Below are positions 18,037-32,244 of a stretch of 64,000 bases of DNA, piece by piece. Position 1 is the stretch's first letter; every line of letters starts with the position of its first letter. The translations under genes were made by a program, and so were the position numbers. Under the pieces are notes generated by a model, which was not told the DNA's origin, searched no databases, and worked only from the letters and a program-made list of their open reading frames with translations. Origin of the DNA: Nitrospiria bacterium (lineage in GTDB: Bacteria > Nitrospirota > Nitrospiria > SBBL01 > JAADHI01); contig CALZIJ010000009.1 of NCBI GenBank assembly GCA_945787655.1, forward strand, positions 3,588 through 67,587. The letters are read 5' to 3'.

Positions 18037-18846
18037 TTACAAGTCTTTGGCACACCGAAACCCCAGAAATGGAAGTCGTGTTTCGGGAGTAACATTTTGA
18101 CGGTAAGGTAATCTTGAAAAAATTGAAAGCGCATAGTGGCCGGATTCACCAAAGGCATCCCCTTTTGCCACTTTAAATTGCTGACCAAAATCATCGGATT
18201 GATAATCCGCTCCAGGAAAAGGCTGGTACCAGTCCGCCGACCATTCCATCACATTGCCATTTAAATCATACACATCGTAGAAACTCCGGTCCTGAGAAAA
18301 CCGTCCAATCATCATCACATTGCCGTGGGAACCGGCACTCACATTGGCCTTGGTGCCATCAAATTCATTTCCCCAAACATAAAGGTTACCATTTGGACCG
18401 CGTGCTGCTTTTTCCCATTCCGCTTCTGTGGGCAACCTTTTAGCCAATGATCGGCAATAATCCCGTGCTTCATACCAATTGACTTCAACCACAGGTAAAA
18501 GCGCCATTCCTGGGGGATGTGAATCCCCTTTCCAATACGGAGGCGGCCTGCGTTTTCGCGCATGAATAAACCGCTGATAGTCTTCATTGGTTACTTCAAA
18601 GCGATCAATATAAAAATCATCCAGTGAGAGACGTCTTTCGGGATGTTCATCGAGATAAAAAGGTTTTTTATTCCCCAACTCGCCCTGGCTTTCCGTATCA
18701 TCAGGGACATCATTACTTCCCATAATAAAAGGGCCGGTAGGAATAAGCACCATTTTGGGCGGAACAGCTTCACGCTGCAGCAAAAAATAAAATATGCCGC
18801 CAAAAAGAAGTAACAGGGAAAGGAATAATAACAGTTTTTTGGACAT
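18037..18846 (-). CDS. Membrane-anchored FGE-sulfatase/SUMF1-domain protein (formylglycine-generating-enzyme family)
   Basis: ATG 18846 (MSKKLLLFLSLLLLFGGIFYFLLQ, an N-terminal anchor). FYIDRFEVTNEDY, VNWYEARDYC, LPTEAEWEKAARG, NVMEW, C-terminal LGFRCAKD, all typical of PF03781-type domains. Last gene of the cytochrome operon. Confidence 0.8.
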   Translation of the reverse strand: MSKKLLLFLSLLLLFGGIFYFLLQREAVPPKMVLIPTGPFIMGSNDVPDDTESQGELGNKKPFYLDEHPERRLSLDDFYIDRFEVTNEDYQRFIHARKRRPPPYWKGDSHPPGMALLPVVEVNWYEARDYCRSLAKRLPTEAEWEKAARGPNGNLYVWGNEFDGTKANVSAGSHGNVMMIGRFSQDRSFYDVYDLNGNVMEWSADWYQPFPGADYQSDDFGQQFKVAKGDAFGESGHYALSIFSRLPYRQNVTPETRLPFLGFRCAKDL

Positions 18847-18951
18847 CAATGGTACTCCGCCAAGACCAGTTTGATGGAGTACTACTTTTTGAAAAAAGCC
18901 ATCATGAAAGGGCGCAGGATAATCGTCCAATCGGATCGGTGCCACATTCTA

Positions 18952-21900
18952 TTATTTCTGTCCGTCCATTACGGAATGTGCATCTGTATTATGGTTCATG
19001 TCAAAACCATGACAGCGGAGGTTACAGCCAGGACCACGATGCCGTTTTCCGGGGTCTGTAGGATGATTGAAATCATTGTCTGCGGTCGCACCGACCTGAC
19101 CACCATCCGGACCATTCACAATTTTTCCGGCGCCCCACATGGGTTGATCCGGGACACGGTTTCCTCTGATATTCGGTTGAAAGTTCAGCAAATGGGTGTT
19201 GGTTTCATGGCCTGGATTGTCCGCTTTAAATTCAGCGCTGTTCATGCCCACAAAAACCGTATTTCCCGACTCAATATTGCTGTGAACATTATTATGGCAT
19301 TCATGACACCGTGCATTCGTCCGGCCAATCAAATGCAGCATATGGAGATTGCCTCCGGTGGTGTTTAGCCCGTCCACATTGGAAGTACCGCATCGGTAAA
19401 AATTGGTCAGGCGGCTCTTCGGGGCAGGGGTCCCCTGTTCCGGATCGGAGGATGGCGGACAATCCTGTGTTTCCCACCACGGCGTAATAAAAGCCGATTC
19501 ATTATGACAATTAAAACACAGAGCAAAATTTTGAGGATTGTATTGCCCGGTGACTGTGCCCGCCGGTTTGGTTTCCGCCGTTCCGATATTTGTGTCATAG
19601 TTTGCACGTAAGATTCTTTTGTATATGGAACCGTGAGGACCTTGTGCCGTTTTTGGATCATTTAAAGACGAAGTCCGTACCCCCACGGGCTCTTCAGGAA
19701 TACTCGGAGATCGGTCCGTATCTCTACGGTAAGCTTTTCCTCGTGTATCATCAAAACTGATCGGGCCGGGGTAATCCGGGAAATTAATGCCAATTGGAAA
19801 ACCGGCGGCTAACCCTTTAAAAAGCGGGATACCTCCCAGATAGGTTCCGAAAAGATCCGTGTTGTGACAATCCGGGCATTGCAGGGTTGCGACACGGGAA
19901 AGCCCGCCCGATCCGTCATGACCACTGACACGCCCGTTGCTGTCAAAACTGGCCTGTGAACCGAACCCACCCATAAGCTGCCCTTGCTGAGTCGGAACAT
20001 CGACAAAAAGATTATAATTATTCAAAACCCCGGACTGATTCCGCCCCGGCTGAAATACAGGGTGAAAGGAGGTGTTAAACATCGGTGGACTCGGATCTAC
20101 CAACAAAGGCCCTCCCGGATTTCCAGTATCTGGCACCCTGAAATTTTCGGGATAAAAAGGGATTGAATTGGGGTCGAATTCCTTGCGTTTATTGCTGCCG
20201 TGCGCATTAACCCCCACAGCGGGATTAATCGGGCTGTTCCCCCGTGCCTGAACTATTTTCCCCGTACCAACAGCTGTAAACAGCGCCTCTCGCACATGGT
20301 TATTAAAAGTGTTCCCATGACACCTCAAACAGACTTCATAAAGCCAGGGTTCACGAACCTCACTGGCTCCCCGAACCGTTTTGGCCACAATTTGGCTGCG
20401 GATTGTAATCCCCGGAATTCCCTGAAAACGGTTTCTGCGGGTCACGCGATGCATGTTATGACAATCCACACATTCTACATGCGAGGTATCCGGTGTATTG
20501 GGCGCGTGTTCTAAATCGATGTCCTTATTCCCTGGCGGCGTATCAAAAGGGCCCCCAAAATAAGAGGGAATCCGGTTGTCACTGCCCAGTTGTACCCCTT
20601 CTTTCGGGTCATCCACAAATACAGGTTGATGGCCCAGTGCCATGGTCAAATCCATAGCGCTTCCGGTTGGGGAAGTCCCGTGGTTCCCATTCCCTTCACG
20701 GTCTCTAAAAAACTGACTTTGAATATCCGGAGCTCGCGTCGGCGCCTGAAGGATGGAGGTTTCCTGTGGCTGGTGACACTGAAAACAGGTCGTTTCAATG
20801 GAGACATTGCCGGCAGGATCTACCCCTTCACGTAAAATACGGATGGCCCCTTGACGGGTGTGGGGGTCATGACATACCAAACAGGCCCGTTCCGCCACAA
20901 CCGGGGTTTCTCCGTCGTGCAGGTTGGTTGCCCCCGGTTTAAGCAGGCTATCATCAAAAACGCCGGTTTGCCGGTCCCCAAAATGGGAATTCAGCTCGTC
21001 CGGATTATAAGGCCAGCCTGGTTTGTCATGGCAAAACAGACATAAAATCGCACCGCCCTCATTTGGAGGAGAGGCACGGTTTGGTCCTCCGACGCGTTTT
21101 TCAGCCTGTGTGGACGCAAAGGTGCGGGCTTGCAGACGGTTTGCCCGTAAAAATTTAGGGAAATCAACCTGATGCGGGTTATGACAAGAGGTACACTGTA
21201 CGGAATCAAATACATTGACATCATCCCCCGAAGCGCGTCGTAACGGGCCAATCGGGGTCGGTGTACTCTGCGTAAAAGGCCGTCGAAGGGGTGGGCCCGG
21301 ATTGACAAACTCAACATCTTTTGCAATCAGGGCGGCATCAAATTTCATTGAAATCGGGTGATCATTTCTCAGATCCCTTCCCAATGCCCGGGTATTTTGT
21401 GAAGTGGCGCCTTCACCGACGGGAATGCTGCCAAAAGGACCGGCAGGATCCTGCCCGGTCGGATACTCCATCGTATATTCGCCATTCAGACCACCACTGC
21501 CGCCCTTGTTTAATACATTCCCCAGGGCAATCGTGCCATCGTGACAAGAAAGGCAAAGCCTGGAATAACCGGTGGGCTGACCGGGCGCATTCGGCGTGGC
21601 TTCAAATGATTTGCTCCATACCTGGTCATACATCTGATACTGCGCCCTTGAAAGACTTCTGTTCCAAATCGGTGCCTGAAACGGGATTCCTTCACGGTTG
21701 GCGCCATGAGGCGTGTGGCAGAACACGCAAACTTCCGTTGTCCCGTTCGACAATGAGGATTTAATATTTCGTTGTTGATCGGGACTAAAAATTTCTTCAA
21801 ACAACTGTTGCTGTTCCGCATCCAGCGGGACGGCAGACAGGTTGTGCTTGGTCGCACTGACATCCTCGGTAAAGGGTTCAGAAGTCGGTTGCGCCCAGGA

Positions 21901-22041
21901 GGGCTGATCCGATGATAAAAAGAATGAAAAACCCGTTATAAGAACAAGCAGAATCAGTATAGAAAAAGAGAAAATCCCCTGTAAATCAGGCTTTCTGACA
22001 ATTGATCGAATTTTCTTTATCAATAGAGATAACCCTTTCAT
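18952..22041 (-). CDS. Large secreted multihaem cytochrome c (11 CXXCH + 1 CX3CH)
   Basis: 1029 aa with N-terminal hydrophobic signal (FSILILLVLITGFSFFL...SWA/QP). CXXCH motifs counted by eye: CVFCH, CLSCH, CTSCH, CLFCH, CLVCH, CFQCH, CVDCH, CLRCH, CPDCH, CFNCH, CHECH. Also CNLRCH at 19009-19026. CVFCH verified on DNA at 21715-21729. Confidence 0.9.
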   Translation of the reverse strand: MKGLSLLIKKIRSIVRKPDLQGIFSFSILILLVLITGFSFFLSSDQPSWAQPTSEPFTEDVSATKHNLSAVPLDAEQQQLFEEIFSPDQQRNIKSSLSNGTTEVCVFCHTPHGANREGIPFQAPIWNRSLSRAQYQMYDQVWSKSFEATPNAPGQPTGYSRLCLSCHDGTIALGNVLNKGGSGGLNGEYTMEYPTGQDPAGPFGSIPVGEGATSQNTRALGRDLRNDHPISMKFDAALIAKDVEFVNPGPPLRRPFTQSTPTPIGPLRRASGDDVNVFDSVQCTSCHNPHQVDFPKFLRANRLQARTFASTQAEKRVGGPNRASPPNEGGAILCLFCHDKPGWPYNPDELNSHFGDRQTGVFDDSLLKPGATNLHDGETPVVAERACLVCHDPHTRQGAIRILREGVDPAGNVSIETTCFQCHQPQETSILQAPTRAPDIQSQFFRDREGNGNHGTSPTGSAMDLTMALGHQPVFVDDPKEGVQLGSDNRIPSYFGGPFDTPPGNKDIDLEHAPNTPDTSHVECVDCHNMHRVTRRNRFQGIPGITIRSQIVAKTVRGASEVREPWLYEVCLRCHGNTFNNHVREALFTAVGTGKIVQARGNSPINPAVGVNAHGSNKRKEFDPNSIPFYPENFRVPDTGNPGGPLLVDPSPPMFNTSFHPVFQPGRNQSGVLNNYNLFVDVPTQQGQLMGGFGSQASFDSNGRVSGHDGSGGLSRVATLQCPDCHNTDLFGTYLGGIPLFKGLAAGFPIGINFPDYPGPISFDDTRGKAYRRDTDRSPSIPEEPVGVRTSSLNDPKTAQGPHGSIYKRILRANYDTNIGTAETKPAGTVTGQYNPQNFALCFNCHNESAFITPWWETQDCPPSSDPEQGTPAPKSRLTNFYRCGTSNVDGLNTTGGNLHMLHLIGRTNARCHECHNNVHSNIESGNTVFVGMNSAEFKADNPGHETNTHLLNFQPNIRGNRVPDQPMWGAGKIVNGPDGGQVGATADNDFNHPTDPGKRHRGPGCNLRCHGFDMNHNTDAHSVMDGQK

Positions 22042-22090
22042 AGACAGATGAATATAATCAGCACACTTTTTTTTGTCAACAAAAACCCCC

Positions 22091-23128
22091 TTAACCGGAG
22101 GGTCTCTCTCTTAATAACTGGAAAACCTGAAGCCTTTTATTATAGGCATCTGCAACATAAATTTGTCCACCCTGCGCCACGGCAATGCCTGCGGGCAGCC
22201 AAAATGCACCCGGATCTTTCCCGGATTTTCCGAAATTGAGCAGTAATTCTCCGGAAGAATTAAAAACCTGAACGGTGTCAAACAAGGTATCCACCACATA
22301 AATATTTTTATCGCGGTCTACAGCAACGCCTTTTGGGCGGGAAAATTGTCCCAGCTGACTTCCAAGACTCCCCAGCTGGGATTTAAACTGCCCTTCCGGG
22401 GTAAACACCTGAACGCGAAAATTCAAGGAATCCGAGACATAAAGCGCGCCGTCCATATCCACAGTCGCATAGGTTGGGAAATTGAAGGCGCCTTCGGCGA
22501 TTCCACGCTTTCCAATCGTCCCTTGTGCTTCTCCTTCAAGGGAATAGACCAGAACCTGGTGCCCCATCGTGTCGACTGCATACAACTTTTCACGAGCGGC
22601 ATCAATTGCCAATCCTGAAATCCGCTTTGCACGTTCGTCATTGCCAATCACCCGGATCATTTTTTTATCCCGATTAAACACAAATATCCGATTCAGATCG
22701 GTATCCGATACATACAAAAGTCCAGCGGCATCCACGGCAACGCCAATAGGGTTTTGAAGGCGTTCTGTCTGTGTAATCTGATAAAGCTGGTGATATTTTT
22801 TATTGTTTACATCAAAATAATGCACGACCTGCAATCCGGTATCAGCAACATACACCCCGCCTTCAAAATCGACCGCCACACCTGAGGGGCGAATAATATA
22901 AGGAATTTTCCCTTTTCCAAAAATAAACTGGACCACACGTTTAAACCAAGTGGGTTTGAGACCAATATCTTCAGGTTTGGACCAAACGTCCACAAAGGAA
23001 ATTTTAGGGGCATCCGGGGGCTTAGGCCAAAGAATTGTCGGATGTTCCTTGACCGGTGCGGTTGCACACGCCGATAACAGCATGAACGCAACAAGAAAGA
23101 CCGCATATTTTAACCGTTGATTTCGCAT
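22091..23128 (-). CDS. Six-bladed NHL-repeat beta-propeller lipoprotein
   Basis: Lipobox MLLSAC. Six repeats of the Y(V/A)(A/S/V)D...(V/I)x(V/I)(F/Y) type: YVADTGLQVVHYFD, YVSDTDLNRIFVFN, YAVDTMGHQVLVYS, YVSDSLNFRVQVFT, YVVDTLFDTVQVFN, YVADAYNKRLQVFQ. Confidence 0.85.
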   Translation of the reverse strand: MRNQRLKYAVFLVAFMLLSACATAPVKEHPTILWPKPPDAPKISFVDVWSKPEDIGLKPTWFKRVVQFIFGKGKIPYIIRPSGVAVDFEGGVYVADTGLQVVHYFDVNNKKYHQLYQITQTERLQNPIGVAVDAAGLLYVSDTDLNRIFVFNRDKKMIRVIGNDERAKRISGLAIDAAREKLYAVDTMGHQVLVYSLEGEAQGTIGKRGIAEGAFNFPTYATVDMDGALYVSDSLNFRVQVFTPEGQFKSQLGSLGSQLGQFSRPKGVAVDRDKNIYVVDTLFDTVQVFNSSGELLLNFGKSGKDPGAFWLPAGIAVAQGGQIYVADAYNKRLQVFQLLRERPSG

Positions 23129-23136
23129 GATTATAT

Positions 23137-25008
23137 TTAAAAGGACCGGCTGGCGCGGACAAAAACAGACTGGTTTTCAAAATCCACATCTTCCGTACTT
23201 TTCGATGTGTCTTTCCCCCACCTTGCATCAGCGCTAAACAGGAACTTTCCGATGTTGTATGTCAATCCGCCCGTCGTTTGCAATGTGTCTCGGTCCAGGG
23301 AACTATTGCCTTCAGACCGCTCCTGACTTGCACGCGCAGTGAAAGAAAAAGAGGTATCCCCGATAATAAAACTCCAATGCAGCTCTTCATAAAAAATATG
23401 AGAATCCGTATAAAATCCTCCGGGATAATTTTGAAGCGTATATCCCGCAGAAAACATCGCTCCGGGATAGAAATAATAATTACCCCGGCCATCCAAAAGA
23501 AAATTTTCTCCGGCCGCGCCAAAACCATCAATTTTGGTGTAACTGGCTGTCGATTGCAACAAGAGGCTGTCGTCATCCCGAAACAATCCCCTGAAATAAC
23601 TGGAGTCCGCATTGAGCTGAAAAAGGTGTGAGAGCTGATCCCCTTCCCCCTGAGTCTGGGAGCTGCCGCCGGTGTGGCTTCGGTCCAGATCATTCAAAGT
23701 GTATCCCAGGGTCAAATGCACATACCGGATTTGTGTGTTTTCTACTGAGAATGACAAGGTGTGCATTGTATCCTTGGATTCCCCCTGGCCGTCCGTATCC
23801 GAGAACCCGTGACTGATGGCGTAACGTGTGGAATACCGAATGGATTCGAGCGCCCGGGTATAATCCAGGTTTCCACGGTAACGCAGATAGTTTGTAGAAA
23901 TATCCGATGCGCCGCCCTTTGTTTCCGTCATCCCGTAGGATGCGCCAAACCCCGAAGAAAACCCGAAAAAAGGACGATAATTCAAGGTGTAATCAACAAA
24001 GGGCGAGGTGGTCTCGACATCACTGATATCATAACGAAAATAACGTGCGCTCATCACCATGTCCAAATCTTCGGTCGGGCGATATGATCCGCTCCAGAAT
24101 GCATTTTGCTGGCTAATTCTCGGTCCGGCGGATGATGAGGGGGTTTCACTTAAATTAATCCGGGCATGCGTTCCCCATTTTACAGAAGGCGTATAAGAGG
24201 CTGTCGCACCAAATCCGCGCTCAGGACGGATAGAGATTCCGGGCGCATGCCCGCCGCTTAATGGATCCGACCAACGCCAGTTTGTCGTTACGATAAGCGC
24301 GTTTGCCGGACGGCTTTCCGTATTGAGGGTATAAGAATGGCCGCCTCTTTTTTTCGAGGAGACCGACCCGAAACTTGCGATGTCGGCCTTTTGATACTGA
24401 TACCGTCCAATGAGCGTGGTTTCACGAAACTGTCCGCTGGATTCCAGGTTAAAAAACCGATTTACAGTGTTGGGGAGACGATTAGGGTCATCGGCTTCCA
24501 GTTCCGACTGATTATAAGAAACCGTCAGCCGGGGTAGTTTCGGTACGGAAAAGTTCCAGTTTCCGCCAAAGGTGATTAAGCGGTCCTTGACTTCAAGGCC
24601 GGACTGAAGCCCCACTGGATCAATTTTATTGGTCCGGTTCATCTGTTGATAATACAAACTGAACGGTGAAACATAAGGGAGCAGTGTCATATGAACGGAG
24701 TAGTCATTAAATTGAAAATCCTGATCCCCTCCCGCGCTATCCGTATCGGTGTCCTGGCTTTGATAAGTACCGTTTAAGAGCAGGTTACCGATGCGAGGAT
24801 TAAAGATTTCACCAAAGTTATGGAGATTGTATCGTTGCTGAAAAAAAGTGGTTTCCTGTGTTTCGTTCCCCTGTTCCGTTTTAAACTCACCATAACTGAG
24901 ATCAAGAGAACCGCCCAGGTTAATAAACCGGGATTCAGCTTGAACCGGAAGAAAAAGCATAAAGATTATGCCGAACCAGATTAAGTTTCTCTTCCTCAAA
25001 CGGAGCAA
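23137..25008 (-). CDS. Large outer-membrane beta-barrel protein (candidate cytochrome-sheathing porin)
   Basis: 623 aa. TTG start 4 nt after AGGAGG (25013-25018). Signal peptide IIFMLFLPVQA/ES. Long run of alternating amphipathic strands with Y/G/N/D/S/T-rich turns. C-terminus ...VFVRASRSF. Confidence 0.65.
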   Translation of the reverse strand: MLRLRKRNLIWFGIIFMLFLPVQAESRFINLGGSLDLSYGEFKTEQGNETQETTFFQQRYNLHNFGEIFNPRIGNLLLNGTYQSQDTDTDSAGGDQDFQFNDYSVHMTLLPYVSPFSLYYQQMNRTNKIDPVGLQSGLEVKDRLITFGGNWNFSVPKLPRLTVSYNQSELEADDPNRLPNTVNRFFNLESSGQFRETTLIGRYQYQKADIASFGSVSSKKRGGHSYTLNTESRPANALIVTTNWRWSDPLSGGHAPGISIRPERGFGATASYTPSVKWGTHARINLSETPSSSAGPRISQQNAFWSGSYRPTEDLDMVMSARYFRYDISDVETTSPFVDYTLNYRPFFGFSSGFGASYGMTETKGGASDISTNYLRYRGNLDYTRALESIRYSTRYAISHGFSDTDGQGESKDTMHTLSFSVENTQIRYVHLTLGYTLNDLDRSHTGGSSQTQGEGDQLSHLFQLNADSSYFRGLFRDDDSLLLQSTASYTKIDGFGAAGENFLLDGRGNYYFYPGAMFSAGYTLQNYPGGFYTDSHIFYEELHWSFIIGDTSFSFTARASQERSEGNSSLDRDTLQTTGGLTYNIGKFLFSADARWGKDTSKSTEDVDFENQSVFVRASRSF

Positions 25009-25067
25009 CCCGCCTCCTCTATTCGTTTAGCCTCAAACCACTCAGGATGATATTAACGGACAAGCAT

Positions 25068-25637
25068 TTATTGATCATCCGCTGAGGTAGTCAAACCATC
25101 GCCAAAAAGTTGAATTTCTGCACGTTGGGCCATTTCCTGTAAACGGTGACTGCGTTCTGACTCCGGCATTTTCAAATAACGCTCCCATGATTTCTGAATT
25201 AAAATCGAACGCACGACCCCTTTTCGAATATCTTCTAAATTCAAGGTTTGCTCAGACAATGCGGCATAAAACGCATCGACCGACTCAAACCGGTTTTGGA
25301 TTTTTTGAATACCGGCCTTAACTTCTTCTTCAGTGACCCTTAGATCATTTTCCAATCCACTTTGATATAAAAGTTCTTCCTCAATCAGTTTCTTCAATAC
25401 CTCTTTTCGAATCGAAGCCATTCTCATCGGAGACAGCTTCTGGTGTCCGATCTGCCGAAGGTAGGTTTGAACGAGCGTATCAACCTCATTTTCGTGAATC
25501 GGGGTTTTGTTGACTTCAGCCAGGGGCGCCGCTTTTACCGAGGGAACCATCAGCAAACTCATCAAAAACAGCGTGAATACCCCCCACTTTTTGTTTACGC
25601 TGAATCCGCTCGTTTTTTTCATCAAAGTCCACTTCAT
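25068..25637 (-). CDS. Periplasmic SurA-N-terminal-like chaperone lacking a parvulin rotamase domain
   Basis: 189 aa. Signal peptide FLMSLLMVPSVKA/AP. ...NKTPIHENEVDTLVQTYLRQ...IRKEVLKKLIEEELLYQ... resembles the SurA/PpiD N-terminal chaperone module. Too short to hold a PPIase domain. ATGA overlap with the upstream cytochrome gene. Confidence 0.6.
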   Translation of the reverse strand: MKWTLMKKTSGFSVNKKWGVFTLFLMSLLMVPSVKAAPLAEVNKTPIHENEVDTLVQTYLRQIGHQKLSPMRMASIRKEVLKKLIEEELLYQSGLENDLRVTEEEVKAGIQKIQNRFESVDAFYAALSEQTLNLEDIRKGVVRSILIQKSWERYLKMPESERSHRLQEMAQRAEIQLFGDGLTTSADDQ

Positions 25638-26770
25638 TTTTTATGACAACTTAAACAAATTAAACTTCTGGCGTTTCGATCTTGCGAATCCGGATTGGGC
25701 CGTGAAGCCAGACGCAGAAAAAGGGAATTATTAATAGTTTGCGCATTTACGGGGTCGGATAAAACCGGTTGTCCGCCGGGGCGGCTGGCTTCGTGCGGAT
25801 TATGACAGGAAGCACATTCGATATACGGCGCATCTGGACGACTGGGGTCGGACGGATAGGCCCGAATCCGGTCCCGTTTATCCAGTGGCAAGTTTGCCCC
25901 ATTCGGGTCTCGATCAATCCACATCACACTGCCGCTCCCCGGAATTCGTCCACCCTTGGTGGTGATATTGGTCAAGATCTCCTTGAATTGCGGGTCGGTT
26001 CTGGGGATTTCCATGCTAATCGGGTGATCATCCCTCAAATCGAGACCCAAGTTGGGGAAAGGTTCGGCCCCAAAGGAAGCATTCGGGCCGGACCCAAATT
26101 GGTCAAAATAGACAAACCCGCCATTACCCGTTGGGTCCGCATCCGCACGGCGGCCCTCCCGAAAACTATTCGCAGCATCCACAGCCGGGCCTGAAAAACC
26201 CATACCAATACTGCCACCCGGCCCGTCGAAGGTTTTATTTAAAGGGAAAAACCCGCCGGAGCCGGAGCTGTTAATCAAGGCATCAAAAGCCACCGCACCG
26301 TCATGGCAGGAAAGACACGCCAGGGAAACACCTTTGGGCCGACCCGGCGTTCCCGTCATGTCCTGTGCATCGAAATGAGGGCTGCTGTAAGGCGTATAGG
26401 CCATTGGGCTGGAGATACGCCGGTTCCATAACGGCGCGATTCCCTGAACACCGCCGACATTCGACCTCCCGCCGTGTGGCGTATGACAAAAAATACAGAC
26501 TTCTTCATTCAAGCGGATATCCCCTTCAATGCCTCGGACTTCAGGGTTCCGGGCACCACGCAAGGAAGTCAACCCGCCGGGGACAAAATCGTTTCCTTCT
26601 CCAGCAAGGATATCCGGATTAACAGCAAGATTATGTTTGGTATGCCGGACATCCTCTGACCCAAATGTACTTTTCAAGAAAAAAGGAAGACTCATGAAAG
26701 TGATGACGAACGCACCGAACATCCACTTTACAAGCATTCCGTTTCTATGTTTATGAAAAGAACGTTTCAT
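25634..26770 (-). CDS. Tetrahaem cytochrome c (periplasmic/secreted)
   Basis: 378 aa with signal-like N-terminus. CIFCH, CLSCH, CASCH, CLSCH. Shares the KHNL / CxFCHTPH / PLWNR / CLSCHDG / DLRDDHPISM / CASCHNPH scaffold with the other two cytochromes. Confidence 0.9.
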   Translation of the reverse strand: MKRSFHKHRNGMLVKWMFGAFVITFMSLPFFLKSTFGSEDVRHTKHNLAVNPDILAGEGNDFVPGGLTSLRGARNPEVRGIEGDIRLNEEVCIFCHTPHGGRSNVGGVQGIAPLWNRRISSPMAYTPYSSPHFDAQDMTGTPGRPKGVSLACLSCHDGAVAFDALINSSGSGGFFPLNKTFDGPGGSIGMGFSGPAVDAANSFREGRRADADPTGNGGFVYFDQFGSGPNASFGAEPFPNLGLDLRDDHPISMEIPRTDPQFKEILTNITTKGGRIPGSGSVMWIDRDPNGANLPLDKRDRIRAYPSDPSRPDAPYIECASCHNPHEASRPGGQPVLSDPVNAQTINNSLFLRLASRPNPDSQDRNARSLICLSCHKK

Positions 26771-27903
26771 TGGTCGCTTGAGACTCCTTTCTCTTCAAAA
26801 AACTGAAAAGAACCGGGACTGTCCGAGGAAGGTTTTGACGAAATGGAAGCCGGTGCGTCAAGGTATTGAAACACATTGATCCGATGATTGTATTGATCGG
26901 CGACGTAAATACGATTGTTTTGATCGACGGTTAAACCAGCTGGCAGCCAAAACTGACCGTTTCGCCCGCCAAATTCACCGAAGAAAAGAAGCAGACGCCC
27001 CGACTGATCGAATATCTGAACATTGTTAAACCGGGAATCCACGACATAGATATGGCCTTCGGAATCCACGCCAACGCCTTTAGGCAAAGAGAACTGGCCA
27101 AACCCCGTACCGACACTCCCAAACTTGGACAGAAATTTCCCCTCGGCATCGAAAACCTGAACCCTGAAATTCATATCAGTGATGTATATTTTCCCTGACC
27201 GATCAATAGAGAGGTTGGCGGGAAAATTAAATTTCCCATCTTCTGTGCCGCGGCCCCCAAATTCAAAAAGAAACTTTCCCTCGGTATCGTAAACAAGCAC
27301 AGCATGTTTACGCGTATCTACAATATAAACCCGTTTAAGGCCATCATTTACAGCAATACCGACGGGATGTTCCATTTCATTCTCATTACCGAAATTAAAA
27401 AGAAACTTTCCTTCAGTATCATAAACAAACGCTTTTCGGTGTACAGTATCCGTTGCGTAAACCCGGCCTTGCTGGTCCACCGTCACACCCAAAGGGCCGG
27501 AAAGCGCCCCTTCCCCGTCTACACCAATCATGGAAAATTGCTTTTGTTTTTCATCAAAAACCAGGATTTTCCGCCACCCCGAATCAGCAACATAAACACG
27601 GCCTTCCGGTGTCGCAAAAACGGCATAGGGTTTTACTAAAGACGCCGAGGATTTCGCGCCAAAAAGAAAGGCTTTCACATGATCAGTCCATTTTTTCTCC
27701 TCTACATCAGTGGAAGAAGAAATGGTTTTGATAAACTTGATCCGCGGCGGCTCCGGAGGGGAAGGCCACACGATCTCCGGGCTGGATTTTAAGGCTTTAC
27801 CCCCGCATCCGAAAAGAATCAGTACCAGAAAAACCAGGAGAACATTACGTAACCGAATCGAAAAAAAGATACCGCCTCCTATTTTTGATGACAGGTCAAA
27901 CAC
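26767..27903 (-). CDS. Six-bladed NHL-repeat beta-propeller lipoprotein
   Basis: GTG start 27903. Lipobox-like LILFGCGG. Repeats YVADSGWRKILVFD, YATDTVHRKAFVYD, YIVDTRKHAVLVYD, YITDMNFRVQVFD, YVVDSRFNNVQIFD, YVADQYNHRINVFQ. Overlaps the upstream gene by 25 nt and the downstream gene by 4 nt. Confidence 0.85.
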   Translation of the reverse strand: MFDLSSKIGGGIFFSIRLRNVLLVFLVLILFGCGGKALKSSPEIVWPSPPEPPRIKFIKTISSSTDVEEKKWTDHVKAFLFGAKSSASLVKPYAVFATPEGRVYVADSGWRKILVFDEKQKQFSMIGVDGEGALSGPLGVTVDQQGRVYATDTVHRKAFVYDTEGKFLFNFGNENEMEHPVGIAVNDGLKRVYIVDTRKHAVLVYDTEGKFLFEFGGRGTEDGKFNFPANLSIDRSGKIYITDMNFRVQVFDAEGKFLSKFGSVGTGFGQFSLPKGVGVDSEGHIYVVDSRFNNVQIFDQSGRLLLFFGEFGGRNGQFWLPAGLTVDQNNRIYVADQYNHRINVFQYLDAPASISSKPSSDSPGSFQFFEEKGVSSDQ

Positions 27904-28685
27904 AATGCGCTGCCTCGATTGGACGTTCTCAAAAACGGGTCCCGCCCCTGCAAATTCTTTTCATCCGGACTGTGAATATCGTGACAAGATGCGCATTGCA
28001 CCTTATCTCCCTCAAATGTTTGCACACCATTTGGAAACATTCGGCCGCCATCCGTCTTTAAGATCGTGGGCTGATTAAACTGCGGATCAAGGTCTAGCGA
28101 AGGATAAACCATAGAAAAAGCATGATCATCCCTTAAATCCTTTGTAAAATAACGTATCGTCGCATCATGCGCGCCTGACACGCCCCCATATGCGCCTTCG
28201 GAACGATTGTGGCATTTGGAACAGGCGTCCGAACCGGGTTCCCCTTCAAGCGTCATCCTGTGTTTGACGCCCGCATCATTGATATTGTGAAACTTGGGGG
28301 GTTTTAATACGGAATCCACCGCCACAGAACCGTCGTGACAAGAAAGACATGCGAGCGAAATCCCATCCGGTGCTTTAGGTGGAGTGGAATCAAAATTGGG
28401 ACTGGAGTACATCCGGTATTGCCGTTCTTCCGGCAGTTCCCGATTCCAAAGCGGGGCGTAACTGCTGCTGTTGTGAGGCGTATGGCAATAGACGCAGGAT
28501 TCGCGATAGTCGCTAAATGTGCCGCCCTGCATGGGTCCGGTTTCAGCCTGATATCCCCGCCAGTTTAACGCGGACAAATCATGGCGGGAACGGACAATCG
28601 ATCCACCTTTCGCTGAAGCAGAGAACATCAATAGAAGACCTGCGATGGAGAACAGGACAACAACCTTTATCCCTTTTATGTTCAC
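27879..28685 (-). CDS. Pentahaem cytochrome c (periplasmic/secreted), first gene of the operon
   Basis: 268 aa. GTG start 11 nt after AAGGAGG (28697-28703). Signal peptide LLLMFSASA/KG. CVYCH, CLSCH, CSKCH, CASCH, CLTCH. Confidence 0.9.
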   Translation of the reverse strand: MNIKGIKVVVLFSIAGLLLMFSASAKGGSIVRSRHDLSALNWRGYQAETGPMQGGTFSDYRESCVYCHTPHNSSSYAPLWNRELPEERQYRMYSSPNFDSTPPKAPDGISLACLSCHDGSVAVDSVLKPPKFHNINDAGVKHRMTLEGEPGSDACSKCHNRSEGAYGGVSGAHDATIRYFTKDLRDDHAFSMVYPSLDLDPQFNQPTILKTDGGRMFPNGVQTFEGDKVQCASCHDIHSPDEKNLQGRDPFLRTSNRGSALCLTCHQK

Positions 28686-28790
28686 CTCGGCAAATGCCTC
28701 CTTTAGATGAAGCTGAATGGCTCATAAAAGGCCGATATCAGGAAAAACTGACTTATCTGTCAGAAAAAAATCCCAATATAATCCGGGATC

Positions 28791-28818
28791 ACTATAAATT
28801 TATTTTCAAATTTGTCAA
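28791..28818 (-). promoter_or_regulatory. Sigma-70-like promoter candidate for the cytochrome operon (TTGACA-16 nt-TATAGT on the minus strand)
   Basis: Reverse complement of 28813-28818 is TTGACA. Reverse complement of 28791-28796 is TATAGT. Spacer is 16 nt. Lies about 100 nt upstream of the GTG at 28685. Confidence 0.4.
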
Positions 28819-28834
28819 GAAATTTGTCAAGAAA
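28808..28834. repeat. Tandem 12-bp direct repeat AAATTTGTCAAG x2 (plus AAA)
   Basis: 28808-28819 and 28820-28831 are identical. Each unit carries TTGACA on the minus strand. Located in the divergent intergenic region. Confidence 0.9.
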
Positions 28835-28909
28835 AAAGGAATCCCGTTTTAAGTTTGAGTCTTTGAGCTGACCAGTGGAAGGGAAAGTCTGAACTTAAAA
28901 TAAAAGCGG

Positions 28910-28939
28910 TTGACAAAATTAAAAACGGTATGGTACTAA
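28910..28939 (+). promoter_or_regulatory. Sigma-70-like promoter candidate for the c7-type cytochrome genes (TTGACA-18 nt-TACTAA with TG extension)
   Basis: TTGACA 28910-28915. TGgTACTAA 28931-28939. About 35 nt upstream of the ATG 28974, which is preceded by AGGGAGGG. Confidence 0.35.
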
Positions 28940-28973
28940 TCCACCAACTTTTCATATTTTCAAGGGAGGGATA

Positions 28974-29360
28974 ATGAAAAAGGCGCGTGTAGGCACAATA
29001 TTGGGATTGGCCATTCTGTTTTCGTTCTTCTTCGTTGAAGACCGTGCATCTGGATATTTTGGCGACATGGTTCTAAACAGTAAGGCCGAAAAAAGAGGGA
29101 TGCCACCAGTCGTCTTCCCTCACTGGTATCACAGGGCGGAATTTAAATGTAAGGTTTGCCATCCTGCAATTTTTGAAATGCGATCCGGTGCCAATGATAT
29201 TGACATGAAAAAGATTGTTGTGGACGGTCAGTACTGTGGGAAATGTCATAACGGAACCATCTCATGGAAGCCGATCGAATGTGCACGCTGTCACTCCGGT
29301 ACTCCCGGAATGGAAACTGGAGTCCTGGAAGGGTTCCCCTGGAAGGGGCCTTCAAAGTAA
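28974..29360 (+). CDS. Small periplasmic c7-type trihaem cytochrome
   Basis: 128 aa with signal peptide. VVFPHWYHRAEFKCKVCHPAIFEMRSG...IVVDGQYCGKCHNG...IECARCH gives three CXXCH in the spacing of c7/c3-like trihaem domains. Confidence 0.85.
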   Translation: MKKARVGTILGLAILFSFFFVEDRASGYFGDMVLNSKAEKRGMPPVVFPHWYHRAEFKCKVCHPAIFEMRSGANDIDMKKIVVDGQYCGKCHNGTISWKPIECARCHSGTPGMETGVLEGFPWKGPSK

Positions 29361-29482
29361 GGCTTGTCTGATATTTTAAACGGATGGTATGATGAGAAGA
29401 ATGGAGTTTAAAATATCACAAACCTTAGGAAAGTAAGTCTCAACGAAGCATATACTTTTGATCGATATTTGGAGGGGTTTTA

Positions 29483-30178
29483 ATGGCCGGGGCAAAAGGA
29501 CAAAAAAGATCAGCATTCACGGGAATTTTCATCGTGGCACTCTCGCTTGTTTCAATATATGCCTGTGTGCGTCAGGCAAAAAGCGAGACCGTCACTCCAG
29601 CAACACCAGCAAAAGATAAACCTGTTGTTGTTGCACAAGCTGCAGCGCCTATGCAGGTAGAAGAAAAAGAGCTCGCTGCTGAAAACAAACCTCAATCACT
29701 TGTTGCGCCTCGACCTGAAACAGGTCTACCGGTATTCGAAAGCCCTCACAACCTGCCGAAACCAGGGCCGCCCTTCAACAAGGAAAATTCAAACCCTGAT
29801 GTCGTCATGAAGAGCATCCCTAAAGAAGCCACGGGTTTGGAGGATTGGGTCAAAGCATTCCAGGAAGATAAAATCAACCCACACGAATCTCTGGATTTGG
29901 ATAAAAAACATACCCCTCCCCTAAAATTTGATGTGGAAATTCCAGCGGTTGGCTCTATGCCCAATGTGATTTTTCCGCATGAGCCGCATACTTACTGGCT
30001 CGATTGCACCAATTGCCACCCAGGGATTTTCATGATGAAAAAAGGAGGGAACCCCATCTCCATGGTTAAAATTGTCAATGGTGAATTTTGCGGCCGTTGT
30101 CATGGAAGGGTGGCTTTCCCGATTGCCAATTGCACGCGTTGCCATGTTAAACCAAAAGAGGAAGCTTCTGCAAAATAA
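29483..30178 (+). CDS. Membrane-anchored c7-type trihaem cytochrome with long Pro/Ala-rich linker
   Basis: 231 aa. N-terminal anchor FTGIFIVALSLVSIYACV. About 110-aa low-complexity linker (TPATPAKDKPVVVAQAAAP...LPKPGPP). C-terminal VIFPHEPHTYWLDCTNCHPGIFMMKKG...IVNGEFCGRCHG...NCTRCH. Confidence 0.85.
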   Translation: MAGAKGQKRSAFTGIFIVALSLVSIYACVRQAKSETVTPATPAKDKPVVVAQAAAPMQVEEKELAAENKPQSLVAPRPETGLPVFESPHNLPKPGPPFNKENSNPDVVMKSIPKEATGLEDWVKAFQEDKINPHESLDLDKKHTPPLKFDVEIPAVGSMPNVIFPHEPHTYWLDCTNCHPGIFMMKKGGNPISMVKIVNGEFCGRCHGRVAFPIANCTRCHVKPKEEASAK

Positions 30179-30201: not shown

Positions 30202-30246
30202 ATGAAATCGCCCCGCAAGATGATTCATCTTGCGGGGCGATTTCAT
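30202..30246 (+). terminator. 45-nt perfect palindrome (22-bp arms) after the second c7 gene; likely terminator/insulator hairpin
   Basis: ATGAAATCGCCCCGCAAGATGA-T-TCATCTTGCGGGGCGATTTCAT centred on 30224. Starts 24 nt after the stop at 30178. No clean T-run follows the stem (ATCCTACACATATTTTT). Confidence 0.5.
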
Positions 30247-30271
30247 ATCCTACACATATTTTTCCAATGTT

Positions 30272-31090
30272 ATGAAAACCATTTTGATACTAAACTTAAT
30301 GCTCACCTTAATTTCCCCCTCTTTACTCAAAGCGGGAATCCTGGATAAAACGGATACTGCACGGGAAAACCTGATTGGTCCTGTAAAAAATGTCCACGTG
30401 GAAATTGCAAAAATCATTCAGGTTGACGGGGAATGGGTTGAAAAGGCGCCAATGCCCTGGCTGTCCACATTCTATGATCCACAAGGACACCGGACTAAAG
30501 AAGTTCAAATTTACACCAATCCCTCCCTGGATTTCACATCGACCTTTACACGTGACAAACACGGCCTGCTCATCGAAGGCACAGAATTCAATGCCGCCGA
30601 GGAGGTCGCCTTTAAGTGGACTTATACGCATGACCCGTCCCACCGTCACATCGAAGAACAGCGGTTTCAACCGGATGGGACTTTTTTCTCAAAAACCACC
30701 TATGAGTACGACAAAAATGGTAACCTCAGGGAAGAAAACCGTTTTCCGCCTCATACGCAGAACCATTTTAAATGGGTATACAAATACAACGACTCAGGGC
30801 TTCAGATTGAAGAGTCTCATTTTTTAATGCGTTCGGGCATTCGTCCCGGTCATGTAGAAAAATCGCTTAATTCACGGCGGGAGTTTGAATATGACAGAAA
30901 AGGCCGGATTAAAAAGGAAATCCGATACAATGGATCAGGGGAAATTGTGAGGATCATGGCCTACAAGTATACCTTTGATCAACGGGGCAACTGGGTCTCC
31001 CAAACAGCCATGGAATCTTTAAAATCACCGGGAAAATCCCCGCTTGTTCCCACTGAAATTACGCACCGTAAAATCACCTATCATCCATAA
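30272..31090 (+). CDS. Secreted protein with YD/RHS-like repeats (hypothetical)
   Basis: ATG 30272 (MKTILILNLMLTLISPSLLKA, a signal peptide) is preferred to the TTG 30230 inside the palindrome. Repeats such as YEYDKNGNLREE, YKYNDSGLQIEE, FEYDRKGRIKKEIRYNGSGEIV. Confidence 0.5.
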   Translation: MKTILILNLMLTLISPSLLKAGILDKTDTARENLIGPVKNVHVEIAKIIQVDGEWVEKAPMPWLSTFYDPQGHRTKEVQIYTNPSLDFTSTFTRDKHGLLIEGTEFNAAEEVAFKWTYTHDPSHRHIEEQRFQPDGTFFSKTTYEYDKNGNLREENRFPPHTQNHFKWVYKYNDSGLQIEESHFLMRSGIRPGHVEKSLNSRREFEYDRKGRIKKEIRYNGSGEIVRIMAYKYTFDQRGNWVSQTAMESLKSPGKSPLVPTEITHRKITYHP

Positions 31091-32244
31091 TGGGGGATGC
31101 ATTGACTTTTTCATTTCATAAAAAACAATTCATTTTAAGAATCTTGTTGATACTCATCCCTATTGTGGCTTTATCCGCATATCCTGTTTCCGCCCAACCC
31201 AGAGAAACAGTCCCCACACCGGCACAAACCAATCCCTCTTCCGGGTTATGGGAACATTACTTCCTGTTTTCAATTGTCCGGGCCTTGGCTTTTGATCAGG
31301 ATACCTTATGGGTAGGTACATCAAACGGGCTGTTGCAATACAATCTCTCCACCGGAGCACAACAGGTTTACACCGTCAAAGAAGGCTTGCTTTCCAATAT
31401 CATTCATGCCCTGGAAATCGCGCCAAATGGAGAAGTTTGGGTTGGCACAATCGGCGGTGGATTAAGCCTTCTTCGAGACGGGCAATGGCTAAACTACACC
31501 CCTTACGGCGCTGGATCAACCGTTTCTTACTGGAGCGACTGGCAGACATACTCAAAAGGAAAAGGCCTTGGAGATTTATGGGTATACGGGATTCACTTTG
31601 ATCCAAAGGGAACCATGTGGGTCGCCACATGGAAAGGCGTCAGCGTCTTCGACGGGGACACCTTTCATACTTACACAACCAAAGACGGCCTGGTTGATAA
31701 GTGGGTCTACACCATCACTCAAGATAAAAAAGGAAACTTCTGGTTTGGAACAGAAGCTGGCGTCAGCCGCTTTAATGGAAAAACATGGGCCAGCTGGGAT
31801 AATAAAGATGGTGTGGGGGCCGACATTGCCATGAGTACGCCGCCCGTGGCCCAAGGCTTGCCGTTCATGCCAAAACACCATGAAGGAGATCACAAACCGC
31901 TCTCATACAATCCGAATTACATCGTTTCATCAGCCATCGATTCAAAGGATCACCTTTGGGTGGGAACCCTTGGGGCCGGGCTTTCCCGGTTTGACGGGAA
32001 AAAATGGATCAGCTATTCCACCCAGGACGGACTTGCGGGAAACATGGTTCATGCCCTCAAATTTGATGCCTCCGGCATACTGTGGATCGGAACGGACGGT
32101 GGAGTGAGCCGTTTTGACGGAAAAACGTTTTCAAATCTCACAAAAAAAGATGGGATCGGCGCAGTATTTTCGATAGAAATTGACCGTCAAGGGCATAAAT
32201 GGTTTGGCTCTTTTGGGGTCGTCAGTCAATACCGAGGAAAATAA
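31090..32244 (+). CDS. Secreted stand-alone beta-propeller of the two-component-regulator propeller (Reg_prop) type
   Basis: Signal peptide LLILIPIVALSAYPVSA/QP. Repeats LWVGTSNGLLQYN, VWVGTIGGGLSLL, MWVATWKGVSVFDG, FWFGTEAGVSRFNG, LWVGTLGAGLSRFDG, LWIGTDGGVSRFDG. No kinase or output domain. TAATG junctions on both sides. Confidence 0.7.
   Translation: MGDALTFSFHKKQFILRILLILIPIVALSAYPVSAQPRETVPTPAQTNPSSGLWEHYFLFSIVRALAFDQDTLWVGTSNGLLQYNLSTGAQQVYTVKEGLLSNIIHALEIAPNGEVWVGTIGGGLSLLRDGQWLNYTPYGAGSTVSYWSDWQTYSKGKGLGDLWVYGIHFDPKGTMWVATWKGVSVFDGDTFHTYTTKDGLVDKWVYTITQDKKGNFWFGTEAGVSRFNGKTWASWDNKDGVGADIAMSTPPVAQGLPFMPKHHEGDHKPLSYNPNYIVSSAIDSKDHLWVGTLGAGLSRFDGKKWISYSTQDGLAGNMVHALKFDASGILWIGTDGGVSRFDGKTFSNLTKKDGIGAVFSIEIDRQGHKWFGSFGVVSQYRGK

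Follow-up and report, generated by a model that had tools for sequence, protein, structure and literature searches.

A PCC_1-type gene cluster with OmcE-family cytochromes as a candidate trans-outer-membrane electron-transfer apparatus in a Nitrospiria bacterium

What kind of system is encoded where multihaem cytochromes, β-propellers and a large outer-membrane barrel share one run of genes, and in which direction would electrons pass through it? The question is raised by a 64-kb stretch of contig CALZIJ010000009.1 from a Nitrospiria bacterium (assembly GCA_945787655.1), here called the window, to whose positions all coordinates refer. Eight genes run in one direction on its minus strand, from 28685 down to 18037, and encode, in this order, a 5-haem cytochrome, an NHL lipoprotein (NHL1), a 4-haem cytochrome, a SurA-like chaperone, a 623-residue β-barrel, a second NHL lipoprotein (NHL2), a 12-haem (dodecahaem) cytochrome and a protein of the formylglycine-generating enzyme (FGE) fold; two c7-type trihaem cytochrome genes diverge from them on the plus strand. 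An earlier note on this DNA, written from the sequence alone, read the locus as an extracellular electron-transfer machine of uncharacterised composition. The note was right in kind, and an outer-membrane electron-transfer machine is very likely what these genes encode; its claim of novelty was wrong, and the homology of the three large cytochromes to OmcE was overlooked.

Chemolithoautotrophic Mn(II) oxidation was reportedly demonstrated only in 2020, and the machinery by which its electrons enter the cell is said to be still sought. One of the two leading candidates for electron entry is PCC_1 of Ca. Manganitrophaceae, which Yu & Leadbetter are reported to have defined in the same year (2020, in Nature). 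As a find the window cluster is not new, being a further copy, in another genome, of this described candidate system. What is new here is the explicit homology that ties PCC_1 to the OmcE nanowire system, through three cytochromes and a propeller lipoprotein, together with the link of its barrel to UetC of the Uet system. We favour, with rather better than even confidence, the reading that the cluster would be a trans-outer-membrane electron-transfer apparatus of PCC_1 type, built from OmcE-family cytochromes and most likely working inward in its host.

OmcE-type cytochromes, propellers and barrel

The list of open reading frames (ORFs) contains all ten genes at the coordinates and on the strands given before, with the eight-gene run and the divergent c7 pair intact, and a motif count again gives 26 CXXCH motifs in five proteins (5 + 4 + 11 + 3 + 3). 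The run is compact, with overlaps of 25, 4 and 4 nucleotides and gaps of 59, 8 and 49 nucleotides as calculated from the ORF coordinates. The gap between the dodecahaem and FGE-like genes, previously put at 105 nucleotides, has this length with the internal ATG start used in the public record, which calls the latter gene as 269 residues, and measures 6 nucleotides with the longest ORF, from GTG. The same eight-gene order is repeated in at least 13 independent Nitrospirota loci, and the arrangement is therefore not due to chance. Domain calls come from Pfam and NCBIfam profile scans, which found all the domains expected by the earlier note (NHL, SurA_N without rotamase, FGE-sulfatase and TIGR04257 c7); lipoboxes were assigned by eye and by regular expression.

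The 5-haem protein (27879..28685, minus strand; 268 residues, signal peptide, five CXXCH) aligned over its full length, in a sequence search of the PDB, with chain A of 7TFS, the OmcE filament of G. sulfurreducens (E 8.7e-24). It also matched chain N of 9YUQ, the OmcE bundle of D. soudanensis (E 3.8e-18; bioRxiv 10.1101/2025.10.22.684050), and an OmcE-family hidden Markov model (HMM; E 6e-45). Four CXXCH motifs and H35, H71, H188 and H238 are invariant when the protein is aligned with 34 OmcE homologues, and the fifth CXXCH (C155) sits in an insertion of approximately residues 127-180 that is added to the OmcE core. The 4-haem protein (25634..26770, minus strand; 378 residues, four CXXCH, long insertions) aligns with 7TFS at all four haem sites (E 6.4e-12) and with the OmcE HMM at E 1.2e-27. 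Its gene lies directly 5' of the chaperone and barrel genes, which is the position of UetA.

The dodecahaem cytochrome (18952..22041, minus strand; 1029 residues, N-terminal hydrophobic helix or signal) has 11 CXXCH motifs and one CX3CH, CNLRCH, and all 12 haem sites are invariant in 31 homologues. An OmcE-type tetrahaem module at about residues 60-340 is followed by eight more haems: the profile of the family matches 7TFS at E 2e-19, and the match of the OmcE HMM (E 3.8e-28) is limited to residues 95-301. We rejected a build of three fused OmcE modules, since only one such module is detectable with the HMM. The alignments establish a predicted OmcE-type tetrahaem core, with its four distal histidines, in each of these 5-, 4- and 12-haem Paired-CXXCH cytochromes.

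Of the two divergent c7-type trihaem cytochromes, the first is a periplasmic protein of 128 residues (28974..29360, plus strand; three CXXCH, TIGR04257 E 1.4e-17, PF14522 E 2.5e-13). The second (29483..30178, plus strand; 231 residues, TIGR04257 E 2.6e-17) carries a Pro/Ala-rich linker, has its three CXXCH within the C-terminal 75 residues, begins with a signal or possible lipobox, IYAC, and is probably tethered to a membrane; it matches Geobacter PpcA weakly (E 1.6e-5).

Both NHL proteins also have a close homologue in the Geobacter omcE cluster. NHL1 (26767..27903, minus strand; 378 residues, PF01436 E 8e-30), a six-bladed β-propeller lipoprotein with the lipobox LFGC, matches the NHL lipoprotein of the G. 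sulfurreducens cluster at E 1.9e-68, and NHL2 (22091..23128, minus strand; 345 residues, PF01436 E 5e-33), with the lipobox LSAC, does so at E 6e-54. The lipobox is followed by VWPSPPEPPRI in NHL1 and by WPKPPDAPKI in NHL2, and a WPxPPxxPRI motif behind the lipobox is common to NHL1 and the Geobacter lipoprotein. The two propellers, both predicted outer-membrane lipoproteins, are shown by these comparisons to be close homologues of the Geobacter propeller.

The 623-residue protein (23137..25008, minus strand), which has a signal peptide and ends in ...VRASRSF, matched no Pfam or NCBIfam family. An AlphaFold2 model made with 38 homologues (predicted local distance difference test, pLDDT, 84) has 30 strands right after the signal peptide and no plug domain, in agreement with the wide barrel proposed before. 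Foldseek places MtrB (6r2q_B) first among PDB structures (E 2.6e-10) and LptD barrels next. The TM-score to MtrB, about 0.39, is compatible with the smaller number of strands in MtrB, which is 26 in the 6R2Q structure. Our calculation for an idealised barrel (n = S = 30) gives a backbone diameter of ~53 Å and a lumen near 40 Å, which is wide enough for a small multihaem protein.

In an hhalign comparison, the barrel profile matches 33 UetC-like barrels of Uet-type loci at 96.9% (E 1.5e-10, 539 columns), with reversed controls at 0.2-0.3%. A broader profile, built from an exhaustive HMMER search, raises this to 99.8% and E 3e-28; its reversed controls reach about E 1e-5 (7-9e-6), so that only values far stronger than these count. 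Model and profiles establish the protein as a predicted empty 30-strand barrel homologous to UetC. The family is rare, with 128 representatives in 1.84 billion proteins, many of which bridge subfamilies, and it shares a C-terminal ...R-x-[ST]-R-x-F signal; the homologues found for the window barrel are nearly all of Nitrospiria and Ca. Manganitrophus origin. The barrel of the Geobacter omcE cluster matches the broad profile at E 4e-15 over the N-terminal ~200 columns (197; reversed controls ~7e-6) and reaches only 50% with the narrow one in a profile-profile comparison, and direct phmmer and hmmsearch comparisons of the window barrel or UetC profiles with it gave nothing significant. Partial homology of the two barrel families is probable on this evidence.

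The 189-residue chaperone (25068..25637, minus strand; SurA_N_3 E 1.6e-13) matches SurA_N families only, with no Rotamase match in Pfam. ORFs at the same position in a Uet-type locus (L047) and in another Nitrospirota locus (L013) carry SurA_N plus Rotamase in ~345 residues, which suggests that the PCC_1 version has lost its rotamase domain.

The last gene (18037..18945, minus strand; 302-residue ORF, 269 residues from ATG) encodes a membrane-anchored protein in which an N-terminal hydrophobic helix precedes an FGE-sulfatase domain (PF03781 E 3e-50). It has just two cysteines, C164 and C297, which we take from the human FGE sequence to be structural disulfide positions, and no cysteine in the aligned active-site stretch, where true FGE has its catalytic CxxxxC; among PDB structures the inactive paralogue SUMF2 (1y4j) matches it best. 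Since the catalytic cysteine pair is lacking, the protein is read as an accessory and not as a formylglycine-generating enzyme, probably with a structural or maturation role. Most other Nitrospirota loci have one to three FGE-like genes behind that of the large cytochrome (tandems of two or three occur); one precedes NHL2 in L018, and others were found in L054 and L061. In the Ca. Manganitrophaceae chromosome OY970371 (L002/L005, 16056-16873) the FGE-like gene is split into two ORFs of 121 and 151 residues, by a frameshift or a long-read error.

Correspondence with PCC_1 and a wider family

The composition that the earlier note called uncharacterised proves to be that of a published locus type. 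An exact look-up of the dodecahaem protein places it on contig CALZGB010000163.1 of the Nitrospirota MAG (metagenome-assembled genome) GCA_945786955.1. The 4.6-Mb chromosome OY970371 of Ca. Manganitrophaceae carries the same eight genes in the same order with the divergent c7 pair, and its outer neighbours also match (genes for the RHS-like and Reg_prop proteins, a SIS protein and a methylase). The dodecahaem is 66-68% and the barrel 51-53% identical to Ca. Manganitrophus proteins. Across Manganitrophaceae and MAGs from an Oslofjord tunnel, dodecahaem identities span 66-81%, with the nearest (75-81%) in MAGs OFTM336 and OFTM244 and in a hydrothermal-vent sequence. These tunnel MAGs, described as 'Manganitrophus-like', come from Mn-oxide-forming biofilms.

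As described by Yu et al. 2022 (PMC9040806), PCC_1 is a porin-dodecahaem cytochrome c cluster common to all Ca. Manganitrophaceae, the only such cluster shared across the family, and is proposed together with Cyc2 as the entry point for Mn(II)-derived electrons. Table S6 lists for strain Mn1 a 5-haem protein (Ga0306812_1011436), an NHL protein (1437), a 4-haem protein (1438), a second NHL protein (1441), an extracellular 12-haem protein (1442) and an FGE protein (1443); genes 1439 and 1440 fall outside the part compared. These six are single-copy core genes, four being present in 8/8 genomes of the family and the 5-haem and FGE genes in 7/8, and they are transcribed during growth on Mn(II) at the 34th-83rd percentile (PMC9040806). 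We give the locus type the name PCC_1, by inference, because it is the only dodecahaem cluster common to the family, and from the protein comparisons we infer that the window cluster would be its orthologue. No link of PCC_1 to OmcE or Uet was found in the literature examined.

Complete eight-gene clusters, with dodecahaems 33-41% identical to that of the window, occur in other Nitrospirota MAGs from groundwater and other sources (L009-L013, L016-L018). These are either PCC_1-like clusters outside Ca. Manganitrophaceae, contrary to a statement in PMC9040806, or PCC_2/PCC_3 paralogues.

The dodecahaem family has 3794 matches. We surveyed 80 loci, one genome per species, by comparing six-frame ORFs with the window proteins (88 loci were fetched overall), and c7 cytochromes, NHL proteins, the barrel and the chaperone were the recurrent partners across the 88. 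Three architectures stand out. The first, in Nitrospirota, has the order 5-haem, NHL, 4-haem, SurA-like, barrel, NHL, 12-haem and one to three FGE-like genes; the 4-haem and 5-haem pair is present in the 13-14 Nitrospirota loci in which both genes fall inside the fetched stretch. The second, in MAGs of Deltaproteobacteria, Myxococcota, Binatia and Gemmatimonadota, consists of NHL, OmcE-like tetrahaem, barrel, NHL and 12-haem genes. The third, in many Gamma-, Beta- and Alphaproteobacteria and in Nitrospinota, runs tetrahaem, chaperone, barrel, c7, c7, (x), c7, NHL, NHL, 11-haem, which is exactly the published uetABCDEFGHIJ order.

The core order of this Uet type was found in ~40 of ~55 loci of Proteobacteria and Nitrospinota, 33 of them with a UetC-like barrel. 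Haem counts of the large cytochrome are 11 + 1 in the first two architectures and exactly 11 CXXCH in 56 loci of the third, and the window dodecahaem is 30-35% identical (tblastn) to the undecahaems of Uet-type loci over its N-terminal half. Two clusters with an outer-membrane barrel, NHL and OmcE-like genes lie on contigs labelled 'Thermoplasmata archaeon' (L020, JBHHWA010000004.1) and 'Chitinophaga pinensis' (L038, CALRRO020000008.1); the cluster parts are typical of other bacterial phyla, and the contigs are probably mis-binned.

Uet was defined in Tenderiales (Gammaproteobacteria) as a kit of a tetrahaem, a peptidyl-prolyl isomerase (PPIase), a barrel, c7 trihaems, two NHL proteins and an undecahaem, and Tenderia expresses it while drawing electrons from a cathode (bioRxiv 10.1101/2022.05.06.490989); it has also been found in Fe(II)-oxidising Gallionella. 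The Occ proteins of Ca. Dechloromonas occultata include the undecahaem OccP, NHL proteins and a PPIase, and are expressed at the protein level during Mn(III) reduction (bioRxiv 10.1101/695007). OmcE of Geobacter and Desulfuromonas is a proven extracellular filament, and its minimal clusters always comprise two multihaem cytochromes, two β-propeller lipoproteins, OmcE and a large barrel (bioRxiv 10.1101/2025.10.22.684050). The statement in the earlier note that characterised porin-cytochrome conduits include neither NHL propellers nor a dedicated chaperone is not supported: Uet and Occ have NHL proteins and a PPIase, and omcE clusters have propeller lipoproteins. Its description of Uet as a cassette of Zetaproteobacteria likewise needs correction to Tenderiales and Gallionella.

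Proposed mechanism, direction and alternatives

In the arrangement that we propose, the SurA-like chaperone and the NHL lipoproteins would help with insertion of the barrel and with delivery or docking of cytochromes. One OmcE-type cytochrome would fill or thread the lumen of the barrel in the manner of MtrA within MtrB; the 4-haem protein is the likeliest, since its gene adjoins the barrel gene just like that of UetA. On the cell surface, the dodecahaem and the 5-haem OmcE-like protein would touch the substrate. The free and tethered c7 cytochromes would serve as electron carriers across the periplasm, delivering to inner-membrane complexes or drawing from them. These complexes and the link to the quinone pool would be encoded elsewhere: as noted before, the cluster has no quinol dehydrogenase gene, and none was seen among the ~30 window ORFs that were Pfam-scanned or publicly annotated, with about a dozen outside the scan.

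In this host the direction would most likely be inward, with Mn(II), Mn carbonate or some other mineral outside the cell as the electron donor, following the proposals made for PCC_1 and Uet. The earlier note had held that carriers mostly devoid of extracellular redox metabolism would speak against an electron-transfer role. The carriers do not refute the role by this standard. They include Mn(II)-oxidising Manganitrophus, cathode-oxidising Tenderia and Fe(II)-oxidising Gallionella, and also the Mn(III)-reducing Ca. D. occultata and the metal reducers Geobacter and Desulfuromonas (Mn(III)/Fe(III) reducers on the reducing side); many others are MAGs of unknown physiology.

Several points weigh against this reading. 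No member of the PCC_1, Uet or Occ type has biochemistry, localisation or genetics behind it, and the earlier description of the system as biochemically uncharacterised holds. Bis-His haems, the OmcE type, usually have low potentials and suit low-potential outward transfer; they are a poor fit for electrons from Mn(II), for which we estimate a donor potential of roughly +0.4 V or more at pH 7. Homology does not fix the direction, since the related Occ cluster is expressed while Mn(III) is being reduced; by analogy, Tenderia and Manganitrophus would point to uptake, and Occ and Geobacter to export. A cytochrome inside the barrel, if any, is a proposal only, by analogy with MtrA. The AlphaFold2 monomer of the 5-haem protein, made with the 34 OmcE homologues, reaches only pLDDT 40, a low confidence that is expected for a coil-rich, haem-dependent fold.

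Expression in strain Mn1 bears on the question as well: Cyc2 is expressed at least as strongly as PCC_1 (PMC9040806), and could be the real Mn(II) oxidase. Moreover, the naming of the locus as PCC_1 is drawn from mBio text passages and the compared part of Table S6 (PMC9040806), and the apparent tie of the host to Ca. Manganitrophaceae consists of protein identities to the family and to the Oslofjord MAGs.

The alternative that survives best, although we think it unlikely, is that the cluster makes a nanowire. The 5-haem protein would polymerise by ligation of a histidine to the haem of its neighbour, and the filament would be secreted through, or anchored on, the barrel with the help of the NHL proteins; the extra exposed haem would make it a 'leaky' wire, and the 4-haem and 12-haem proteins with their OmcE modules would form its base and tip. 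The full-length alignment of the 5-haem protein to a filament subunit of similar size, with all eight haem ligands kept, speaks for this, as do the strong homology of the NHL lipoproteins to that of Geobacter and the N-terminal match of the barrel profile to the Geobacter barrel. The preprint on omcE clusters reports filaments from clusters of the same composition, places OmcE homologues beside a porin in five phyla including Nitrospirota, and suggests that OmcE-like proteins with five haems, from uncultured bacteria, may make up a new and partly 'leaky' family of nanowires (bioRxiv 10.1101/2025.10.22.684050).

Conservation of haem ligands, however, cannot tell a monomer from a polymer, and filaments are unreported from Manganitrophus, Tenderia and D. 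occultata. The N-terminal match of the barrel to that of Geobacter (E 4e-15, reversed controls ~7e-6) extends over part of the protein only and falls to 50% with the narrow profile; orthology links the 8- and 9-haem partners in Geobacter to neither the 4-haem nor the 12-haem protein of the window, and the 5-haem monomer model is of low confidence. A bolder version, in which PCC_1 would be an OmcE-type nanowire system running in reverse, and not an MtrCAB-like conduit, with a leaky 5-haem filament, a 4-haem base and a dodecahaem tip, appears more doubtful still. If this is true, an aerobic autotroph that oxidises Mn(II) would be able to gather electrons through the filament from distant Mn(II) or MnCO3 and to hold Mn-oxide encrustation off the cell, and PCC_1, Uet, Occ and the omcE clusters would be one ancient, bidirectional filament-assembly machine.

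An outward apparatus, which would place respiratory electrons onto Mn(III/IV) or Fe(III) oxides, for example under O2 limitation inside Mn-oxide nodules, is improbable in our judgement. It would agree with the expression of Occ proteins in Mn(III) reduction (bioRxiv 10.1101/695007), with the metal-reducing habit of the organisms that carry OmcE clusters (bioRxiv 10.1101/2025.10.22.684050), with the low potentials usual for bis-His haems and with the presence of homologous loci in Anaeromyxobacter and in Myxococcales MAGs. The closest carriers, however, are aerobic Mn(II)-oxidising chemolithoautotrophs; there the cluster belongs to the core genes and is expressed while Mn(II) is oxidised (PMC9040806). 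Tenderia, too, expresses Uet during electron uptake.

That the genes encode multihaem enzymes of the periplasm acting on a soluble substrate (Nrf-, Hao- or sulfite-reductase-like), with the barrel as an ordinary porin, is highly improbable: the dodecahaem profile does find weak local matches to NrfA (E 1e-4 to 1e-2) and a sub-threshold match to Cytochrom_C552, but a motif count gave no CXXCK or catalytic-haem signature in the cluster cytochromes, the modelled plug-less barrel, with its 30 strands, far exceeds a diffusion porin in size, and the flanks of eight Pfam-annotated loci hold pur genes, resB/ccsB, glycosyltransferases and housekeeping genes with no nrf, hao or dsr genes, a setting that the earlier note had named as one that would speak against its reading.

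Surroundings of the cluster and comparison with known systems

The divergent intergenic region (28686..28973) contains a sigma-70-like match, TTGACA-16-TATAGT at 28818->28791 on the minus strand (11/12 consensus). It lies ~105 nucleotides 5' of the 5-haem gene and is the best in the region, as a consensus match only. Between the NHL2 and dodecahaem genes (22042..22101, minus strand) a terminator-like hairpin at 22101->22086 is followed by TTGACA-17-TATATT at 22079->22051, again 11/12; matches in the consensus scan overall are not above chance. In strain Mn1 the dodecahaem transcript value is ~2x that of the upstream genes in the part of Table S6 considered (PMC9040806). A second transcription unit may begin at the dodecahaem gene, the promoter and terminator being consensus matches only.

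On the opposite strand a gene for a sigma-54-dependent response regulator (16070-17422) adjoins the cluster. For this reason sigma-54 promoters (TGGCAC-N5-TTGCW, up to two mismatches) were sought; the window has fewer matches than expected by chance and the divergent region has none. Ferrochelatase, an enzyme of haem synthesis, is encoded at 14969-15898, 2 kb from the cluster, beside housekeeping genes for isoprenoids and the envelope (GcpE, RseP, Dxr, CdsA, UppS). The Ca. Manganitrophaceae chromosome does not conserve this setting: there, large NHL-repeat proteins come after the FGE-like gene.

Beyond the c7 genes lie genes for an RHS-repeat-like secreted protein (30230..31090, plus strand) and a secreted Reg_prop β-propeller (31090..32244, plus strand), both called by Pfam. 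The pair stands beside the c7 genes in Manganitrophaceae-type loci (L001, L002, L004-L006), and Reg_prop homologues (160-217 bits) occur near many proteobacterial Uet-type clusters (L033, L037, L043, L059, L064-L067, L069, L073) and directly 5' of the 5-haem gene in three Nitrospirota loci (L013, L016, L017). The two proteins may be accessory members of the module.

Among known systems, MtrCAB, MtoAB and PioAB follow a like logic of a wide empty barrel with multihaem cytochromes. The window proteins have no sequence homology to MtrB or to MtrA-type decahaems, and NHL propellers and a chaperone are added. We rejected membership in the MtrCAB group: the MtrA/DmsE-family decahaem model TIGR03508 gives 22-29 bits where the cut-off is 192, and the barrel, modelled with 30 strands, is without a Pfam match and has a TM-score of 0.39 to MtrB. 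PCC3/PCC4 of Fe(II) oxidisers were rejected as well. PCC3, which the earlier note had named as a relative with NHL proteins, is a different system with cytochromes of 21 haems and more and an inner-membrane protein, and NHL is mentioned nowhere in its paper.

Two further systems resemble the window cluster by their description. In the osc (omcS-companion) operon of G. sulfurreducens, reported by Shen et al. 2025, a cytochrome is co-encoded with a proposed folding protein, OscH, and proposed secretion proteins, OscE/F/G, according to the parts of PMC13194489 considered; OmcS is not homologous to OmcE. In the OMC clusters of D. ferrophilus IS5, NHL β-propellers are co-expressed with outer-membrane cytochromes (PMC5815863).

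The omcE clusters share with the window an OmcE-family subunit with all haem ligands, a propeller lipoprotein, a large plug-less barrel beside the OmcE-like gene and a nearby c7 gene. The G. sulfurreducens locus has the order purHDE, ppcA, resB, ccsB, 9-haem, 8-haem, NHL lipoprotein, OmcE, 752-residue barrel and glycosyltransferases, and ppcA with System II resB/ccsB lies immediately 5' of the cluster in the Geobacter/Desulfuromonadales loci L084 and L086-L088. The differences are several. The subunit there has four haems, whereas the candidate subunit of the window has a fifth; the barrel has ~750 residues instead of 623, with homology supported for the N-terminal ~200 columns only; the 8- and 9-haem partners have relatives in loci of the second architecture but no orthologues in the window; a glycosylation island is present there and not in the window; and the filament is proven there and putative here.

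Uet is closer in organisation. Its order tetrahaem-chaperone-barrel (UetA, UetB, UetC) is matched by the 4-haem, SurA-like and barrel genes of the window, and its two NHL proteins, UetH/I, by NHL1 and NHL2, which are homologous to NHL ORFs of Uet-type loci. The large cytochrome is homologous to UetJ and OccP but has 12 haems, not 11. The window also has, at the operon head, a 5-haem OmcE-like gene accompanied by an NHL gene of its own, as well as the FGE-fold gene. Three c7 genes (UetD/E/G) lie inside the Uet operon, whereas the window has two, divergent; Uet has a cupredoxin, UetF, whereas no cupredoxin domain was found by Pfam and NCBIfam in any protein of the window cluster; the Uet chaperone has a rotamase domain, which that of the window lacks; and ccsAB follows the cluster in Tenderia, whereas neither ccsAB nor batABD is attached to the window cluster.

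PCC_1 agrees with the window in gene content, order, flanks, haem counts (12/5/4), the two NHL proteins and the FGE-like gene; the window copy lies in a MAG different from the Ca. Manganitrophus genomes, and PCC_1 was published as a porin-cytochrome complex, with NHL unnamed in the passages of PMC9040806 considered. A single homologous family with Uet, Occ and the solved OmcE system would turn an anonymous 'porin-cytochrome' cluster into testable predictions, namely histidine ligation between subunits, a 30-strand export or anchor barrel and a dedicated propeller lipoprotein, and would join four literatures that run under four names. As judged by these homologies, PCC_1 is one branch of a widespread OmcE/Uet/Occ module.

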